From the NCBI GenBank assembly GCA_035533915.1, contig DATLSX010000038.1, positions 81,019 to 105,018 of the forward strand: a stretch of DNA of 24,000 nucleotides. Direction: 5' to 3'. The position numbers and the translations under genes were made by a program. The notes beneath the pieces were generated by a model that worked only from the letters and a program-made list of their open reading frames with translations, was not told where the DNA came from and ran no database searches. Below are positions 2,651 to 11,125 of the stretch, piece by piece. Numbering within the stretch: position 1 is the first letter of the stretch; each line of letters begins with the position of its first letter. The DNA is from Streptosporangiaceae bacterium (GTDB lineage: Bacteria; Actinomycetota; Actinomycetes; Streptosporangiales; Streptosporangiaceae).

Positions 2651-3130
2651 TTGGTGACCGAGATACGGCTAGCGGCGGGCGATCCCGCACCCGACTTCAG
2701 CCTGCCCGACGCGGACGGCAACCTGGTCAGCCTGGCGTCGCTGCGTGGCCAGCGGGTGATCGTCTACTTCTACCCGGCGGCGATGACGCCCGGGTGCACG
2801 AAGCAGGCCTGTGACTTCAGGGACGCAGGGAAGGAGCTGTCCGAGGCGGGATACGCCGTGCTGGGAATCTCGCCGGATAGCTCGGCGAAGCTCGCGAAGT
2901 TCCGCGACCGCGACGGCCTGACGTTCCCGCTGCTCTCCGACCCGGGCCTGGGCGTGCTGAAGGCTTACGGCGCCTACGGCGAGAAGATGCTGTACGGGAA
3001 GAAGTCGGTCGGCGTCATCAGGTCGACCTTCGTGATCGATCCCGACGGAGTGGTCGAGCGGGCCTACTACGCTGTCAAAGCCACCGGACATGTCGGGCGA
3101 CTGCGTAGAGAACTGGGCCTGGCTCACTGA
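2651..3130 (+). CDS. bcp: Thioredoxin-dependent thiol peroxidase (Bcp-type peroxiredoxin)
   Basis: 159 aa. GDPAPDFSLPDADGNxVSL, VYFYPAAMTPGCTKQACDFRD (peroxidatic Cys in PGCT, resolving Cys 5 residues later), GISPDS, FPLLSD. SD GGAGGGA at 2639-2645. Start is TTG 2651 or GTG 2654. Confidence 0.93.
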   Translation: MVTEIRLAAGDPAPDFSLPDADGNLVSLASLRGQRVIVYFYPAAMTPGCTKQACDFRDAGKELSEAGYAVLGISPDSSAKLAKFRDRDGLTFPLLSDPGLGVLKAYGAYGEKMLYGKKSVGVIRSTFVIDPDGVVERAYYAVKATGHVGRLRRELGLAH

Positions 3131-3218
3131 ACCGGACTAAATAGTACGACTACTTAGTTCCAGGCTGATATGACTTGGTCTGATGGAATCTGGTCGGTCA
3201 GGGAGACCGGCCGTCTTC

Positions 3219-3291
3219 GGGGCCGTAGCCCAACGGCAGAGGCACAGGATTTAGGATCCTGCCAGTGTGGGTTCGAATCCCACCGGCCCCA
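3219..3291 (+). tRNA. 73-nt tRNA with anticodon UAG (would read Leu CUA/CUN) but a class-I body (5-nt variable loop); isotype uncertain
   Basis: Cloverleaf read by hand: acceptor GGGGCCG/CGGCCCC; U8 A9; D arm GCCC-AACGGCAG-AGGC (13:22 mismatch); anticodon stem CAGGA/TCCTG with loop TTTAGGA (U33, UAG, G37); variable loop CCAGT; T arm GTGGG-TTCGAAT-CCCAC; discriminator A73. No encoded CCA. Confidence 0.85.
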
Positions 3292-3301
3292 CTCGGTCTG
3301 A

Positions 3302-3625
3302 TTCTGCGGCCGAGCGCTGCCATCCCGGCTTTCTGGCGGGCAGCAGCAACGTGTCGCCATCGCCCTGATCAGCTCGCCACGCCTGGTCCTCGCCGACGAG
3401 CCCGCCGGGAACCTCGACTCCCCCACTGGCGCCGACATCCTCAAGCTCCTCCTGCTCGTGCGCCAGGAACAGGGCGTGACCATCATCATCGCCACACACG
3501 ACGCTGAGTTCGCAGCGGCAGCCGGCCACATCATCCGCCTCATCGACGGCCAGATCACTGAGGACCCGCAAGCCGCCCCGGTGTTCGATGCGCCTGGCGG
3601 CACCACCGGGTCCGGACCCTCCTGA
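3302..3625 (+). pseudogene. 3' remnant (~107 codons) of a MacB/LolD-type ABC transporter ATP-binding protein; no start codon, Walker A or Q-loop
   Basis: Frame 2 is open from 3302, right after an in-frame TGA at 3299-3301. It reads [89 protein letters not shown]...*, giving ABC signature LSGGQ, Walker B LVLADEP and H-loop ATHD. It has no Met, so it is absent from the ORF track. Confidence 0.8.
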
Positions 3626-3766
3626 ACCGACTCCGGCTCAATGAGCTGTAGCACTACCGTGCGCTCAGCCTTCTCCGGAGAACCGCTCCCACGCCGCCTG
3701 CCTCGGCACGCCAAGCTCCTCCTTGAGCCGTGCGGACTCCAGGTGTGAAAGCTGGAGGAGGCGTGC

Positions 3767-5835: not shown

Positions 5836-6987
5836 TCATCCGTCGGCCGGGACGCGCCACTCGAGCTGGGTTCCGCCGCCCGGCCGGCTGGTGGCCACGA
5901 ACGAGCCGCCGAGAAGCTGAGCCCTGTCCCGCATGTTGCGCAGGCCGCTGCTGCGGGTGACCTCCCCGAGTCCCCGCCCGTTGTCGCTGACTCTGAGCAC
6001 CAGTTCGCGCTCGGCGCTTAGAACCACCGTGGCCGCCGTGGCCTGGGCGTGGCGTGCGATGTTGGACAGAGCCTCGCGGATCACCGCGAGCAGGTGGACG
6101 CTGACCTCAGCCGGGACGCTATCGAGAGTGCCGGCGAAGCTGACCTGCGGGGCAAAGCCAAGCGCAGCGGTCGCGTCCGACGCGAGGCTCAGGATCTGAT
6201 CGCGCAGGTCGGCCGACTCAGCGCGGTTGCGGCGGCGGTCCGCGAAGATAGCATCGCGGATTTCGGCGATCGAGATGTCGAGTTCCCTGATCACCGCTTC
6301 GATCCTGGCGAACGCTTGCGGAGGTGCCACCAGGGCGGCCATGCCTTGCAGGCTCATCCCGGCGGCGAATATCCGGCCGATGACCCGGTCATGCAGGTCC
6401 CTGGCCATCCGGTCGCGGTCTGCCAGGACTTCCTGGTAGGCGCGCGCGGCAGCTACCTGGGCTTCGGCCGCCAGCCGGCTGGTGATGTCTCTGGCTACTG
6501 CCGAATAGCCGATCATCGTTCCGTCGGGGTCACGCATCACCGACATGGTGATCGCGATATCGACGAGAGATCCGTCTTTGCGTTGCCACCGTGTGTCGTG
6601 GGTCGCGGCCCGGCCGGAGCGCACCTGCTGCACGATCTGGTCGAAATCGGCTTGTAGCTCGGCTGGGATGAGGGTGAACCGCTTGCCGACGATCTCGGTC
6701 GCGGTGTAGTCGAACAGCCGCTCGGCACTGGGGTTCCAGGTGGTGATGATCAAGTCCGGGGTTACCGAGACCATCGCGTCTTCGGAGGAGAGGACGATTG
6801 CCGCCAGCTGGGCCTCGGCCAGCCGCGCGGTCTCCAGCTCGTGGTGGAACGCGATCAGCCCGCGGTTGGTTTCCTCCAGCTCGCGGGTGAGGTTGGCGAT
6901 CTGTTGCCTGCTCGCAGCGAGCTCGGCTTCGGCGGCCGCCAGCTGCTCGGCCGCGCCGGGAATCCCGCGGCAGGACTCGGCGGTCAC
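5836..6987 (-). CDS. Cytoplasmic sensor histidine kinase: N-terminal coiled coil, PAS, HisKA_3 (NarL-partner type), HATPase_c
   Basis: 383 aa with no TM segment. Coiled coil AEQLAAAEAELAASRQQIANLTRELEETNRGL. PAS (ITTWNPSAERLFDYTATEIVGKRF...WQRKDGSLVDIAITMSVMRD). H-box MARDLHDRVIGRIF. N box EALSNIARHA. G boxes SDNGRGL and GLRNMRDRAQLLGG. Its GTG overlaps the upstream stop (GTGA at 6984-6987). Confidence 0.9.
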   Translation of the reverse strand: MTAESCRGIPGAAEQLAAAEAELAASRQQIANLTRELEETNRGLIAFHHELETARLAEAQLAAIVLSSEDAMVSVTPDLIITTWNPSAERLFDYTATEIVGKRFTLIPAELQADFDQIVQQVRSGRAATHDTRWQRKDGSLVDIAITMSVMRDPDGTMIGYSAVARDITSRLAAEAQVAAARAYQEVLADRDRMARDLHDRVIGRIFAAGMSLQGMAALVAPPQAFARIEAVIRELDISIAEIRDAIFADRRRNRAESADLRDQILSLASDATAALGFAPQVSFAGTLDSVPAEVSVHLLAVIREALSNIARHAQATAATVVLSAERELVLRVSDNGRGLGEVTRSSGLRNMRDRAQLLGGSFVATSRPGGGTQLEWRVPADG

Positions 6988-8042
6988 GGGGCATCCCCGC
7001 GGGTATCCCGGACGACGAGCACCGTGGCATCGTCGGTGCCTCGCTGGTAGTCGCGGTACAAGATGGCCGCTATGACTGCGGGGTCGCGGCGCAGCAGCCC
7101 TGGGTAGCTAGCCACTTCCCAGTGGCGGCGGATCCCGTCGGAGGCCAGGATCAAGGTGGCATCCGGGCCCCACTGGTGCGTCAGTTCCCTGGCGCGTGGC
7201 AGCGCCAGCTCAGTGCCCGCGGCTCCGTCGTGGCTGACCAGGCCATGGCTGCTGGCACCGTACAGGAGCAGCCCGCTAATGTTGCCGACCCCGGCGTAGA
7301 CCAGCTCGCCGCGTGCCGGGTCGATGACGCAGACTCCCAGTACCCCGCCTCGGGTGCCGCGCATGGCCTCATGCGCCCGCCGCAAGGATTTCTCCGGGCC
7401 GGCTACCGGGCAGGCACTGAATGCCGCGATGGCAGCCTGCGCAGCAGCGGCGGCCTGCGGGCCGTGTCCAAGCCCGTCGACGACCAGGGCAGCCAGGCGG
7501 TCGCCCGCAGCCAGGCGGTCGTCTTGAGCGACCGCCCAGCCGTCACCGGATTCGCCGGACCCGCCCAGCGGGACGTTCACGCCGCCCCAGGCGAAGTCCT
7601 CGTTCCCGGCTGGTGCACAGCCGTGCAGACGGGCCAGGATTATGGTCCCGGCCGGCCCGGTGTAGTGGTCGAAGACGGCGGACAACCGCCGGACGCTGGC
7701 CAGGCCCAGGCCCAGGCCCAGGCCCAGGCCGAGTCCGCCCGCGTGCGGCCGATCGGCGAGACGCTGCATTGGCGCCGGGGAGAGACTGCCCGGCCGCAGC
7801 CCGGGCCCGTGGTCGACGGAGATCAGTTCGATCCCGCCGCCGGCCGGACGGCAGAGCAGGTAGCCGCCGGAGGCATGCCGGAACAGGTTGGCTGCCAGCT
7901 CAGTAGCCGCGAGTTCGGCCTCGCTTGCCCGGATGGCAGGCAGCCGAGCCGCCATTCTGGCGACGGCCCGCCGCGCCGCGCCCACGTCCTCCTCGGCGCC
8001 GATGGCGAGCCGCAGCTGCGGCTCCTGGCTCAGCGCGCCCAT
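6984..8042 (-). CDS. Fusion protein: RsbW/RsbT-like HATPase (Ser kinase-like) domain plus PP2C/SpoIIE-family phosphatase domain
   Basis: 352 aa. N-terminal N box ELAATELAANLFRHA, G1 VDHGPGL, G2 GGLGLGLGLGLGLA. C-terminal PP2C motifs GDGWAV, VVDGLGHGPQAA, GVGNISG, LILASDGI, DDATVLVVR. It overlaps both neighbouring genes. Confidence 0.88.
   Translation of the reverse strand: MGALSQEPQLRLAIGAEEDVGAARRAVARMAARLPAIRASEAELAATELAANLFRHASGGYLLCRPAGGGIELISVDHGPGLRPGSLSPAPMQRLADRPHAGGLGLGLGLGLGLASVRRLSAVFDHYTGPAGTIILARLHGCAPAGNEDFAWGGVNVPLGGSGESGDGWAVAQDDRLAAGDRLAALVVDGLGHGPQAAAAAQAAIAAFSACPVAGPEKSLRRAHEAMRGTRGGVLGVCVIDPARGELVYAGVGNISGLLLYGASSHGLVSHDGAAGTELALPRARELTHQWGPDATLILASDGIRRHWEVASYPGLLRRDPAVIAAILYRDYQRGTDDATVLVVRDTRGDAP
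7489..7524 (-). repeat. In-frame 18-bp tandem duplication inside the phosphatase gene (DRLAAG / DRLAAL)
   Basis: GCAGCCAGGCGGTCGCCC (7489-7506) is followed by GCAGCCAGGCGGTCGTCT (7507-7524). The protein reads AQDDRLAAGDRLAALVVDGLGHG. Confidence 0.9.
7701..7730 (-). repeat. In-frame hexanucleotide microsatellite (CAGGCC)5 inside the phosphatase gene, encoding an expanded (Gly-Leu) run
   Basis: Five perfect CAGGCC units at 7701-7730, flanked by degenerate units GCTGGC and GAGTCC. On the coding strand this reads GGLGLGLGLGLGLAS, which is the G2 box of the HATPase-like domain. Confidence 0.95.
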
Positions 8043-8458
8043 TTGGTGATCACCACGGTCGTTCCTGACCCGCTGGCCGACGTGACATTCATCTCGTCGG
8101 TGAGCCGGCCGGCACCTGGCAGGCCCAGTCCCAGGCTGCCGCCGGTGCTGAATCCGTCGGACAGCGCCGCATCGAGATCAGGGATACCCGGGCCCTGGTC
8201 GCTGAACGTTGCCCGGACGCCGCGGCGGCCGCTGTCCTGGACCTGTTCGACCTGCAGGGTGCCGCGCGATCCGGTGGCGTAGGTGAGGATGTTGCGTGCC
8301 AGTTCGCTGCCGGCCGTGATCAGTTTGGTCTGGTCAACCAGCCCCAGCCCGGCGCTCAGCGCCTCGGCACGCAGCAACTGGCGAACGCGGATCAGGTCGG
8401 CCGCGTCGGCGATGGCGACGGCAACCGCGGTCGCCTCAGTCAAGCCGACGGCTGCCAT
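8030..8458 (-). CDS. RsbT-like anti-sigma regulatory factor (serine/threonine kinase, HATPase_c_2 type)
   Basis: 142 aa. N box GSELARNILTYA, G1 SDQGPGIPD, G2 STGGSLGLGLPGAGRL. This is the size and order expected of the third gene of an RsbR-RsbS-RsbT module. It overlaps both neighbours. Confidence 0.88.
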   Translation of the reverse strand: MAAVGLTEATAVAVAIADAADLIRVRQLLRAEALSAGLGLVDQTKLITAGSELARNILTYATGSRGTLQVEQVQDSGRRGVRATFSDQGPGIPDLDAALSDGFSTGGSLGLGLPGAGRLTDEMNVTSASGSGTTVVITKWAR

Positions 8459-8816
8459 CGCTTCGAAGCCGGCGCAACAGCGCCATGCCCTGCTCGGCGT
8501 TGAGCGCCGTGTCCAGCTTCCCCATCGGCACGCCCAGCTCGACGAGGGTGATCGCGACCGCCGGCCGCATCCCGACGATCGCCGCTTCGGAACCTAGCAG
8601 CCGGATCATTCCCACTACCCGGGCCAGCGCCCTGGCGATGAACGAGTCGACCACGGCCAGGCCGCTGACGTCGATCAGCGTCCCGGTCGCCCCTCGCCGG
8701 GCCACCTCCCTGGTGAGCTGCTCTTCCACCGCGATTACCGTGGCATCGTCAAGGTCGCCCTGCAGGCTCACCAGCAGAGTGTCCCCGACCTGCATGATCG
8801 GTACTACCCCGGTCAC
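8436..8816 (-). CDS. RsbS-like single STAS-domain protein (anti-sigma-factor antagonist family)
   Basis: 126 aa. VPIMQVGDTLLVSLQGDLDD, IDVSGLAVVDSFIARAL (conserved phosphorylatable Ser in the DSF context), AAIVGMRPAVAITLVELG. GTG start overlaps the RsbR-like stop (GTGA at 8813-8816). Confidence 0.9.
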   Translation of the reverse strand: MTGVVPIMQVGDTLLVSLQGDLDDATVIAVEEQLTREVARRGATGTLIDVSGLAVVDSFIARALARVVGMIRLLGSEAAIVGMRPAVAITLVELGVPMGKLDTALNAEQGMALLRRLRSDGSRRLD

Positions 8817-10075
8817 GTCTGGCCGCCGGCGGTCACTGTCGCGACGGCGCTTGCCGCCACGCCTGCGCGTTCGTGCACCATCAGCAATGCCAGTTGCAGC
8901 GCGTCGCGCAGGGTGTTGCGAGTGCGAAGCCTGCCCAGGTCGATGCCCAGGTGCACGATCGCCTGAGCGGTCTCTGGCCGTACCCCGCTCATGATGCTCG
9001 CGGCGCCCATCAGCGTGGCAGCCTGGACCGTCCGCAGCAGGTGCTGGGCTACTTGCGTGTCGATCGTCGGCACTCCGCTGACATCCAGGATGATCACCTC
9101 GGCCTGATGCTCAGCGATCTTCTCCAGCAGGCCCTCGGTCAGCCGGGCGGCCCGCGCGGAGTCCAGCGTCCCGATGATCGGGAGCGCCAGTACCTTGTCC
9201 CACAGCTGGATCACCGGCGTGGACAGCTCCATGATCTCGTCGCGCTGCCGGCGCAGCCGCTGTTGCTGCTCACGGCGCTCGGTAGCATCGCGGATCGCCG
9301 CGACCGCTCGCGGGCCGCGGTCGGTCTCCAGCGGGCTCAGGCTAATCTCCACCGGGAACTCGGTGCCGTCCCGGCGAATGCCGGACAGCTCTAGCCCGGC
9401 GCCCATCGGGCGTGCCCGCGCGGCGCTGAAGAACTCGTCGCGGTGCCGCGGGTGGCGCTGGCGGAACCGCGGCGGCACCAAGATCTCTACGTCCTGCCCG
9501 GTCAGCTGCTCCCGGCTGTAGCCGAACAGCCGCTCCGCCTGCCGGTTGACTAGCTCGATCCGCCCGTCAGGAGCCGCGATCACGATCGCGTCAGGAGCCG
9601 ATTCCAGCAGTCCGCGGAACATCACGTCGGCCTGATGGCGATCGCTGATGTCCCTGGTGACCCGGGCGTACCCGGTGATCGACCCGTCTTGCCCGTGGAT
9701 CGGCGCCGTGATCACGCTCGCCCAGAACCGCTGCCCGTCCTTGCGGACCCGCCAGCCCTCCGACTCCAGGCGCCCGGTCTCCTCGGCCTTGCGCAACTCG
9801 GCCTCGGCTGCCCCTGCCGCCTGCTCTTCGTCGGTGTAGAACAGCGACACCGGTTTGCCGAGGACCTCTGCGGCCGCGTAACCAAGCAGTGCCTGGGCGC
9901 CTGCGTTCCAGCTCGCAATGTTGCCCTCGGCGTCGAGATTGATGATCTCGTAGTCGGCGGCGGCGTCGAGCAGTGCTTCTAGATCGTGCAACCGCGGACC
10001 CGCGTCCGGCTCGCCGTCTGGCATTGCGGCCATCACTAACCCCAATCCCCGGCGTCGGCCGGATTCCATCCTCAC
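8813..10075 (-). CDS. RsbR-like stressosome sensor protein: two N-terminal PAS domains plus C-terminal STAS domain
   Basis: 420 aa. PAS1 (INLDAEGNIASWNAGAQALLGY...WRVRKDGQRFWASV). PAS2 (SAPDAIVIAAPDGRIELVNRQAERLFGY...GIRRDGTEFPVEISLSP). STAS (STPVIQLWDKVLALPIIGTLDSARA...ILDVSGVPTIDTQVAQHLL...SGVRPETAQAIVHLG). The true start may be ATG 10033 (MAAMPDGE), preceded by GGGG. Confidence 0.88.
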   Translation of the reverse strand: MRMESGRRRGLGLVMAAMPDGEPDAGPRLHDLEALLDAAADYEIINLDAEGNIASWNAGAQALLGYAAAEVLGKPVSLFYTDEEQAAGAAEAELRKAEETGRLESEGWRVRKDGQRFWASVITAPIHGQDGSITGYARVTRDISDRHQADVMFRGLLESAPDAIVIAAPDGRIELVNRQAERLFGYSREQLTGQDVEILVPPRFRQRHPRHRDEFFSAARARPMGAGLELSGIRRDGTEFPVEISLSPLETDRGPRAVAAIRDATERREQQQRLRRQRDEIMELSTPVIQLWDKVLALPIIGTLDSARAARLTEGLLEKIAEHQAEVIILDVSGVPTIDTQVAQHLLRTVQAATLMGAASIMSGVRPETAQAIVHLGIDLGRLRTRNTLRDALQLALLMVHERAGVAASAVATVTAGGQT

Positions 10076-10522: not shown

Positions 10523-11125
10523 GTGGAGCCGACGGACGGTCGCGCCGCCAGGTCGCACCGGACCCGGCGCGCCATCATAAACGCCATGCGGGTCCTGCAT
10601 GCCGAAGGTGACCTGCGCCCGACTGCTCCGCGGATCGCTGAGCGAGCGGGCGTGTCGCTGCGCACCGTCTGGCAGCAGTTCGCCGACATGGAAGCGCTGC
10701 TGATCGAGTCTGTCAACCGGGACAAGGAGATCCTCCGGTCGCTGGTGAACCGGATCGACCCAGATCAGCCGCTGGCCGCGCGGATCGAGTCGTTCGTCAG
10801 CCAGCGGGCCCGCGTCCTTGAGGAGATGACTCCGACGTGGCGGGCGGCCCGCATCCACGAACCGTTCTCCGATCAGCTGCGGGACGACCGGAAGCGAAAG
10901 ACCGACGGGGGACGGGCGGAACTTGAGACGGTATTCGCGGCCGAACTGGCCCAGCTTCCGCAGGCGCAACGGGATCAGCTTGTGGACGCTCTGCATGCGA
11001 TCAGCCTCTGGGCGTTCTGGGAGACTCTGCGCACCGACCTCAGGCTGAGCCCGGCGCGGGCCAGGGCACTCCTGCTGGACACCTTCGCGGCGTTGCTCTG
11101 CCATGCCGGGTTCTCTGTGACCTAG
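10523..11125 (+). CDS. TetR/AcrR-family transcriptional regulator (N-terminus uncertain; ORF is open from 10082)
   Basis: HTH region RRAIINAMRVLHAEGDLRPTAPRIAERAGVSLRTVWQQFADMEALL, followed by a ~150-aa helical effector domain. GTG 10523 is the nearest in-frame start before the HTH. Other candidates are GTG 10289/10295 and ATG 10082. Confidence 0.8.
   Translation: MEPTDGRAARSHRTRRAIINAMRVLHAEGDLRPTAPRIAERAGVSLRTVWQQFADMEALLIESVNRDKEILRSLVNRIDPDQPLAARIESFVSQRARVLEEMTPTWRAARIHEPFSDQLRDDRKRKTDGGRAELETVFAAELAQLPQAQRDQLVDALHAISLWAFWETLRTDLRLSPARARALLLDTFAALLCHAGFSVT

Follow-up and report, generated by a model that had tools for sequence, protein, structure and literature searches.

A type I tRNA-Leu(UAG) gene with a short variable loop occupies the bcp-linked tRNA-Leu(UAG) slot in Streptosporangiaceae and other actinobacterial clades

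Introduction

A type I leucine tRNA is encoded on the chromosome of Streptomyces coelicolor. In this bacterium, four type II tRNA-Leu species stand beside a single type I species, tRNA-Leu(CAA), whose variable loop is A44-C45-A46-G47-C48, and its single leucyl-tRNA synthetase (LeuRS) leucylates both types, with kcat/Km values of 6.25 s-1 uM-1 for type I and 14.2 s-1 uM-1 for type II (Fan, Huang, Ji, Wang, NAR 2019; PMC6614811). U8:A14, the main identity element for both types, was important for charging, as was a variable loop no shorter than 5 nt; A73 was without importance. Attempts to delete the type I gene failed. The LeuRS of Escherichia coli, whose identity set consists of A73, A14, A15:U48, G18G19:U55C56, and U54:A58, could not aminoacylate the type I tRNA of S. 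coelicolor. The ability to do so mapped to the leucine-specific domain of LeuRS, and the L732/G733 region of this domain in the S. coelicolor enzyme was tied to type I acceptance. Human mitochondrial LeuRS charged the S. coelicolor type I tRNA, and the S. coelicolor LeuRS failed on human mitochondrial tRNA-Leu(UUR) (all PMC6614811).

A short variable loop was also described in the tRNA-Leu(TAG) of mycobacterial tRNA clusters (Behra et al., BMC Evol Biol 2019; PMC6582537). The rule that bacterial tRNA-Leu are class II, which was the premise of the initial annotation of the locus described here, no longer applies to this phylum (PMC6614811, PMC6582537). In the literature that we searched, Fan et al. 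was the only paper with the exact wording "type I tRNALeu" or "type I/class I tRNA-Leu", and we found no account of a type I UAG isoacceptor that resides on the chromosome. Two papers on tRNA arrays did not discuss the length of the variable arm (PMC5966550, PMC8421152).

Here, we describe a short tRNA gene with a UAG anticodon in a Streptosporangiaceae bacterium. The window, by which we mean the whole 24,000-nt stretch of DNA that was analyzed, carries this gene directly downstream of bcp, and we compared the gene and its neighborhood with those of actinobacterial relatives and with tRNA genes of phages.

Results

ARAGORN called a tRNA-Leu(tag) at 3219-3292 (+), which was the sole tRNA of the window. 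The Rfam tRNA model RF00005 matched 3219-3291 from end to end with 61.9 bits, compared to a gathering score of 29 (E = 2e-11). Thus, both programs and our own reading of the sequence bore out the initial annotation at 3219-3291, namely a tRNA of class I size whose anticodon is that of a leucine CUN reader; the anticodon call was the same, and the covariance model gave the gene anything but a low score. The tRNA reads GGGGCCG UA GCCC AACGGCAG AGGC A CAGGA UUUAGGA UCCUG CCAGU GUGGG UUCGAAU CCCAC CGGCCCC A. It is 73 nt long, with a 7-bp acceptor stem, U8, G37, and A73, and the CCA end is not encoded. The gene and its parts are as follows.

3219..3291 (+), type I (short variable loop) tRNA-Leu(UAG), 73 nt; identified by ARAGORN, Rfam, and pairing in 80 distinct orthologues
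3219..3225 (+), acceptor 5' strand GGGGCCG, paired with CGGCCCC at 3284-3290; 6 of 7 pairs covary
3228..3243 (+), D arm GCC-CAACGGCAGA-GGC with a 3-bp stem, unpaired C13/A22, A14, A15, and G18G19, a tRNA-Leu layout; the same loop string is found in type II at the orthologous locus
3245..3261 (+), anticodon arm CAGGA-UUUAGGA-UCCUG with U33, UAG at 3252-3254, and G37; all 5 stem pairs covary
3262..3266 (+), 5-nt variable loop CCAGU (positions 44-48), the hallmark of type I; family consensus NCAGU
3267..3283 (+), T arm GUGGG-UUCGAAU-CCCAC; 3 of 5 pairs covary
3291..3291 (+), discriminator A73; invariant in the 80 orthologues and present in 131 of the 132 listed phage family members

The features by which Fan et al. 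recognized type I tRNA-Leu were all present: a leucine anticodon, a 5-nt variable loop, U8:A14, G18G19 with U55C56 (D loop CAACGGCAGA), and U54:A58. Every member of the E. coli LeuRS identity set was found as well. Canonical type II tRNA-Leu has a variable arm of more than 10 nt that forms a stem-loop, and here the window tRNA differs in having only 5 nt. It does share the D arm and A73 of type II tRNA-Leu.

The body of the tRNA had been described as having a D loop of the Gln/Glu type and as disagreeing with its anticodon. Neither description held up when the gene was compared with other tRNAs. The D loop CAACGGCAGA of the window corresponds to GAACGGCAGA in two of the type II tRNA-Leu(UAG) genes that occupy the same chromosomal slot in relatives (L303 and L313) and to AAAUGGCAUA in most of the others. 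In L303, the D arm of the type II gene is GCG-GAACGGCAGA-CGC, with A14, A15, G18G19, and the unpaired 13/22 placed as in the window. With the anticodon masked, the median identity of the window tRNA was 0.79 to short leucine tRNAs, which had been selected by the body pattern, and 0.73 to long (type II) leucine tRNAs and 0.60 to 0.67 to the other isotypes, neither of which had been so selected. Gln and Glu, at only 0.61, were among the least similar isotypes, and we rejected a Gln/Glu-like body on the basis of the D-arm comparison and the masked identities.

Similar results were obtained with phage tRNAs. A BLAST search of phage genomes with the 73 nt matched 110 records, and the best matches listed were annotated tRNA-Leu genes located in tRNA arrays of Rhodococcus, Gordonia, and Streptomyces phages. 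The tRNA-Leu of Rhodococcus phage Francesca matched at 89% over 64 nt, and that whole gene was about 82% identical to the window gene. Further matches came from Mycobacterium phages and cyanophage P-RSM6. In the match summary alone, similar tRNA-Leu genes were also seen in Cronobacter, Enterobacter, Pseudomonas, Lactobacillus, and Prochlorococcus phages. If those of the enterobacterial phages are type I as well, their charging would raise a question, as E. coli LeuRS reportedly fails on the type I tRNA of S. coelicolor.

Viral contigs were then scanned with an anticodon-free pattern that ran from the D arm through the T loop (GTAGCCCAA-N1-3-GG-N-AG-N28-33-GGTTCGAATCC). Among the matches listed, 132 of 133 viral-contig tRNAs carried leucine anticodons (UAA 49, UAG 35, CAA 23, CAG 11, GAG 10, and AAG 4), and 131 of these 132 had A73. 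The tRNA-Ser and tRNA-Tyr genes of the same viral loci retained their long arms. The window tRNA fits this phage and tRNA-array type I family, whose members combine a GUAGCCCAA-N1-3-GG-N-AG ... GGUUCGAAUCC body with A73 and a leucine anticodon. Thus, the body and the anticodon of the window tRNA are not at odds: the D arm is of the leucine type, and phage tRNAs with the same body nearly always carry leucine anticodons. As a separate observation, C33 replaced the near-universal U33 in 7 of the 132 listed phage type I tRNA-Leu genes (L006, L054, L061, L089, L091, L112, and L118); an example is the anticodon loop CCCAGGC of L112 at 11013-11089. The C33 of these phage tRNAs could be related to evasion of anticodon nucleases.

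The body was also inspected for determinants of other isotypes. The alanine determinant G3:U70 was absent, as was the proline combination of C1:G72 with a G35G36 anticodon, and A73 excludes the isotypes that have G73, U73, or C73. The remaining A73 isotypes are recognized via their anticodons.

To follow the gene in relatives, we used a set of 80 distinct bcp-linked type I orthologues from the genome scan described below. In this set, 99.9% of the cloverleaf cells were standard pairs, and compensatory changes (i.e., changes on both sides of a pair) were found at 14 of 20 pairs. The acceptor stem provides an example: GGGGCCG/CGGCCCC in the window corresponds to GCCGGCG/CGCCGGC in another orthologue. 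The covariation score was 0.56 compared to 0.13 in shuffles, none of the 500 shuffles reached 0.56, and slid controls scored no higher than 0.11. The invariance of the D stem and D arm, the T loop, and the anticodon in this set was partly imposed by the search pattern, and the same pattern partly fixed the invariance of U8 and A14 in the 80 orthologues. The D-stem variants U11-A24 and U11-G24 were present in a sample that had been selected by bcp (L263 and L250). The conserved block began and stopped exactly at the ends of the tRNA, and the flanks had diverged.

The substitution pattern thus points to a gene that is under selection as a tRNA. It also bears on whether the gene is a pseudogene or a silent, unexpressed relic. 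This reading could draw on the missing CCA and on the lack of a recognizable sigma-70 promoter or intrinsic terminator. Against it stand the perfect cloverleaf, the plentiful compensatory substitutions, and the sharp conservation at the gene ends compared to the diverged flanks. In addition, CCA encoding varied among the orthologues themselves, being present at some gene ends and absent at others. We consider a pseudogene or relic very improbable.

The tRNA gene is preceded by rph, rdgB, an open reading frame (ORF) without assignment, and bcp, in this order, and is followed by a truncated ABC ATPase gene and then a gene for a luciferase-like monooxygenase. The two features immediately upstream of the tRNA are as follows.

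2651..3130 (+), bcp (thiol peroxidase, AhpC/TSA), the upstream same-strand neighbor; Pfam PF00578, 8e-41
3131..3218 (+), bcp-tRNA spacer, not conserved in the orthologue comparison

The length of this spacer ranged from less than 20 nt to about 90 nt across orthologues. A scan found no sigma-70-type promoter in the window's spacer, nor an intrinsic terminator, although scans of this kind are uninformative for actinobacteria. The very short spacers of some orthologues fit read-through from, or co-transcription with, bcp, and bcp is likely to be the co-transcription partner of the tRNA. Such read-through would be a further point against a silent relic.

Several other features of this neighborhood were noted. 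The ORF between rdgB and bcp (1538-2428, -) encodes 296 amino acids and had no Pfam match. Homologues with 29 to 60% identity were found in the loci of many relatives, and they lay between rdgB and bcp where both were present. The spacer of the window contains an AT-rich near-palindrome, ACTAAATAGTACGACTACTTAGT, at about 3148-3172, which is absent from the orthologous spacers; these are shorter and GC-rich. In L178, whose spacer is otherwise short, a unit of about 19 nt, GCCTGAGCGGGTGCTGGGA, is repeated about three times in tandem. The public contig also has a called gene of 186 amino acids (3154-3714, -) that overlaps both the tRNA and the ABC fragment in antisense; this ORF had no Pfam matches and is probably an artifact of gene calling in DNA of high GC content. 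Farther downstream, a cluster at 5836-10075 (-) encodes a PAS-histidine kinase, a SpoIIE-type phosphatase with HATPase_c_2, and PAS-PAS-STAS proteins, and it looks like a partner-switching signaling module.

A scan of 185,579 species genomes with the UAG version of the body pattern yielded at least 119 loci. About 85 of these at least 119 loci were listed as a solo tRNA-Leu(UAG) of 73 to 77 nt that adjoined a bcp homologue, often together with rph and rdgB. The carriers of such solo, bcp-linked type I genes that were listed included Streptosporangiaceae, Micromonospora, Pseudonocardia, Actinomycetospora, Thermobifida fusca, Nonomuraea, Catellatospora, Actinospica, Jatrophihabitans, and metagenome-assembled genomes (MAGs) of Actinomycetota. 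Actinopolyspora mortivallis DSM 44261 and Nonomuraea salmonea JCM 3324 also have type I in the bcp slot. The pairing of bcp with tRNA-Leu(UAG) has therefore been kept across several actinobacterial orders. The remainder of the listed loci included 15 tRNA arrays, and the leucine tRNAs of arrays that had several were 74 to 78 nt long.

Because the genome-scan sample had been chosen by tRNA sequence, a second sample was drawn by the bcp protein alone, from metagenome contigs. A tRNA-Leu(UAG) on the same strand lay directly downstream of bcp in 73 of the 75 bcp-selected loci with room for one. All 73 of these tRNAs had the anticodon UAG, which confirmed this anticodon in a sample not picked by tRNA sequence. 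By architecture, 35 were type I (74 to 77 nt) and 38 were type II (84 to 87 nt), and none of the loci had both.

We compared the two architectures that share this slot. The type II slot gene reads GCGGGCG UG GCG AAAUGGCAUA CGC G GCAGG UUUAGGU CCUGU UGGUGGCGACACCGU GGGGG UUCGAAU CCCCC CGCCCGC A, and it was about 68% identical to the window gene when the variable region was excluded. The acceptor, D, and anticodon stems differed, and there were no intermediates between type I and type II among the slot genes compared. We therefore rejected the idea that type I arose by simple deletion in the neighboring type II.

The genus Nonomuraea provided a natural comparison. The bcp slot of Nonomuraea gerenzanensis holds a type II gene; its closest bcp relatives, which are other Nonomuraea, hold type I. 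The flanks were 79 to 86% identical at the DNA level on both sides, and only about 0.4 kb around the tRNA could not be aligned. When the N. gerenzanensis record was searched with the 73 nt, there was one match only, to a tRNA array (L003, 2845-3224). This array has Ala, Gly, Leu, Glu, and Arg tRNAs, and the gene matched is its type I tRNA-Leu(AAG). The 11.85-Mb N. gerenzanensis record is filed as a plasmid in PLSDB, and it is evidently a mislabelled chromosome.

In a tree of rph, rdgB, and bcp together (61 taxa, 543 columns), the tRNA type switched twice, with a bootstrap range of 1 to 4 switches, and the window was placed inside a large clade in which all members had type I. A tree of bcp alone had suggested at least seven switches between type I and type II. 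We rejected this number as single-gene noise, given the two switches in the concatenated tree.

Type I tRNA-Leu genes were also observed in tRNA arrays of Acidobacteriota and Pyrinomonadaceae MAGs (L127, L147, L186, L209, and L240). These arrays have 20 to 34 genes with tandem type I tRNA-Leu of 76 to 78 nt, and up to four type I tRNA-Leu genes (UAG, GAG, CAA, and UAA) stand side by side. The Acidobacteriota arrays also contain tRNA-Ile(tat) genes of about 93 nt, and a tRNA of L209 (1788-1863) was called with the 4-base anticodon tgat.

On the other side of the tRNA, the initial annotation had reported gene wreckage and had taken it as a sign of accessory origin. The wreckage is real and consists of one truncated gene, which provides context outside the tRNA.

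3302..3625 (+), 5'-truncated ABC-transporter ATPase pseudogene; Pfam finds the end of ABC_tran only

This fragment starts 11 nt past the tRNA, at a point close to the LSGGQ signature motif, and corresponds in alignment to residues 113-196 of a Nonomuraea salmonea homologue (L195). Its frame is closed by a TGA at 3299-3301. An ABC ATPase homologue lies about 2.5 to 6 kb downstream of the tRNA in several relatives (in L195, 3 kb downstream and on the same strand), which suggests that the fragment arose by a deletion that ended at the 3' flank of the tRNA. The truncated gene reflects a variable downstream region and not the origin of the tRNA itself. The accessory origin did not survive the comparison with relatives, as the bcp pairing is conserved across several orders and the window falls within a clade that is entirely type I.

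We also looked for traces of mobile elements. The window had no phage, integrase, or tRNA-array genes, and no att-type repeat of the tRNA 3' end was found in the window or in the extended contig; we therefore rejected an att-type duplication left by an integrated element. A second piece resembling tRNA-Leu(UAG) was found in none of 186 solo loci.

Discussion

The gene at 3219-3291 folds as a tRNA, covaries as a tRNA among its orthologues, has a leucine-type body, and sits in the slot that holds a type II tRNA-Leu(UAG) in relatives. We put the probability at roughly 88% that it is a resident type I tRNA-Leu(UAG), an ordinary decoder of CUA/CUN codons that is charged with leucine; we infer that it is expressed, that it is leucylated, and that it is the sole copy. 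The initial annotation had left room for an unusual leucine acceptor, and the leucine body and the orthology of the tRNA-Leu(UAG) slot support that option.

In the model that we favor, the tRNA would be transcribed together with bcp or just after it, processed by RNase P and 3' trimming, and supplied with CCA by the CCA-adding enzyme. Leucine would then be attached by a single LeuRS, whose gene lies outside the window; bacterial LeuRS ignores the anticodon and reads the core (U8:A14, the G18G19 D-loop layout, and A15:U48) and the 3' end. CUA, and by wobble probably the other CUN codons, would be decoded normally as leucine, and G37 would be suited to m1G37 methylation, as in other CUN readers. 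CUA accounts for 27 of the 540 leucine codons in 16 ORFs of the window; because CUA codons are in use, a decoder is needed.

An alternative is that the gene is a supplementary tRNA-Leu(UAG) derived from a mobile element, a remnant of a phage or a tRNA array that is redundant with a type II gene elsewhere and that boosts CUA decoding or once served a phage. The closest database matches are indeed phage tRNA-Leu genes, such as that of Francesca, and tRNAs with this body are also found in the arrays of Acidobacteriota, Chitinophagaceae, and actinobacterial MAGs. Moreover, a truncated gene abuts the 3' end of the tRNA, and the window comes from a 262-kb metagenome contig of an uncultured, high-GC actinobacterium rather than from a whole genome. 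However, the window lacks phage, integrase, and array genes as well as an att-like repeat, and none of the 186 solo loci carried a second tRNA-Leu(UAG)-like piece. A supplementary gene would also be hard to reconcile with a conserved bcp slot that holds type I or type II but never both in the sampled loci, or with a type that tracks the host clade with so few switches among 61 taxa. We regard this alternative as improbable.

We give the least credence to a deliberate mistranslation tRNA, whose body would be recognized by a synthetase other than LeuRS and which would deliver a different amino acid to CUN codons, as the initial annotation had considered by analogy with tRNA-ProX of Streptomyces, because the support for it comes down to the textbook class II expectation and the tRNA-ProX precedent in the phylum (PMC10404621), whereas the body is of the leucine type in its D arm and in its phage relatives, the determinants of other isotypes are absent, no dedicated synthetase gene is adjacent, and a mistranslator that replaced the only CUA decoder of a clade would recode the proteome.

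The resident reading has several implications. Type I tRNA-Leu is an established form in actinobacteria and phages, so the clash between anticodon and body disappears, and the apparent clash is no evidence of programmed mistranslation. The gene has this known form and lies at the same chromosomal position as the ordinary tRNA-Leu(UAG) of relatives, which makes a deliberate mistranslation device unlikely. As a caution, mismatches between isotype models and anticodons should not be taken as signs of recoding. In whole actinobacterial clades, among them Streptosporangiaceae, Micromonospora, Pseudonocardia, Thermobifida, and Jatrophihabitans, the resident CUA decoder breaks the textbook class II rule.

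What is new here is modest: the resident tRNA-Leu(UAG) beside bcp is the armless form in whole actinobacterial clades, and the two architectures alternate at this slot. The type I allele of the slot belongs to the same family as the phage and array type I genes, which cover all six leucine anticodons, so a mobile-element reservoir is possible. We tentatively suggest, as a scenario that is less likely than not, that type I and type II replaced one another on rare occasions, as a cassette of some 0.4 kb whose flanks stayed intact, and that mobile elements may be the reservoir for a clade-wide replacement of the canonical CUA decoder. If this were true, LeuRS tolerance of an armless tRNA-Leu would be widespread and not a Streptomyces oddity, and the question would arise of what selects for the swap, e.g., escape from nucleases that target tRNA-Leu. 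Natural genome pairs, such as N. gerenzanensis and N. salmonea, are suited to the study of how LeuRS co-evolved with the loss of the variable arm.

Among known systems, the type I tRNA-Leu(CAA) of S. coelicolor is similar to the window gene in that both are chromosomal and actinobacterial and have a 5-nt variable loop (ACAGC there and CCAGU here), U8:A14, G18G19, U54:A58, and A73. This likeness rests on the described features rather than on an alignment. The two differ in anticodon, CAA there and UAG here, and the UAG isoacceptor of S. coelicolor is type II. The S. coelicolor gene is essential, and its product was shown to be leucylated by the single LeuRS. The lineage is different as well, as there was no Streptomyces among the matches listed.

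The tRNA-Leu genes of the mycobacterial clusters (PMC6582537) and of actinophage arrays have the same anticodon, UAG, and the same type I architecture as the window gene. The phage copies and the window gene have in common the D arm GCCCAA..GG.AGAGGC, an NCAGU variable loop, the GGUUCGAAUCC T arm, and A73. However, the mycobacterial and phage copies lie in dense arrays on phages, plasmids, and islands and are extra to the normal type II genes, whereas the window gene is solo, chromosomal, and located beside bcp. The canonical type II tRNA-Leu(UAG) shares with the window gene the anticodon loop UUUAGGN, the D-loop layout, A73, and the slot downstream of bcp; unlike the window gene, it has a 15-nt variable arm, UGGUGGCGACACCGU, and is 84 to 87 nt long.

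The tRNA-ProX of Streptomyces and Kitasatospora belongs to the same phylum and has an anticodon that seemingly does not fit its body (PMC10404621). That body, however, is demonstrably a proline body, and the gene usually lies beside a dedicated ProRSx. The window tRNA has a body that groups with leucine tRNAs and no adjacent synthetase gene and thus does not resemble a dual-identity tRNA of this kind. Finally, the type I tRNA-Leu of animal mitochondria has a short variable loop and A73 like the window tRNA, but it works in a separate compartment with a LeuRS of its own.
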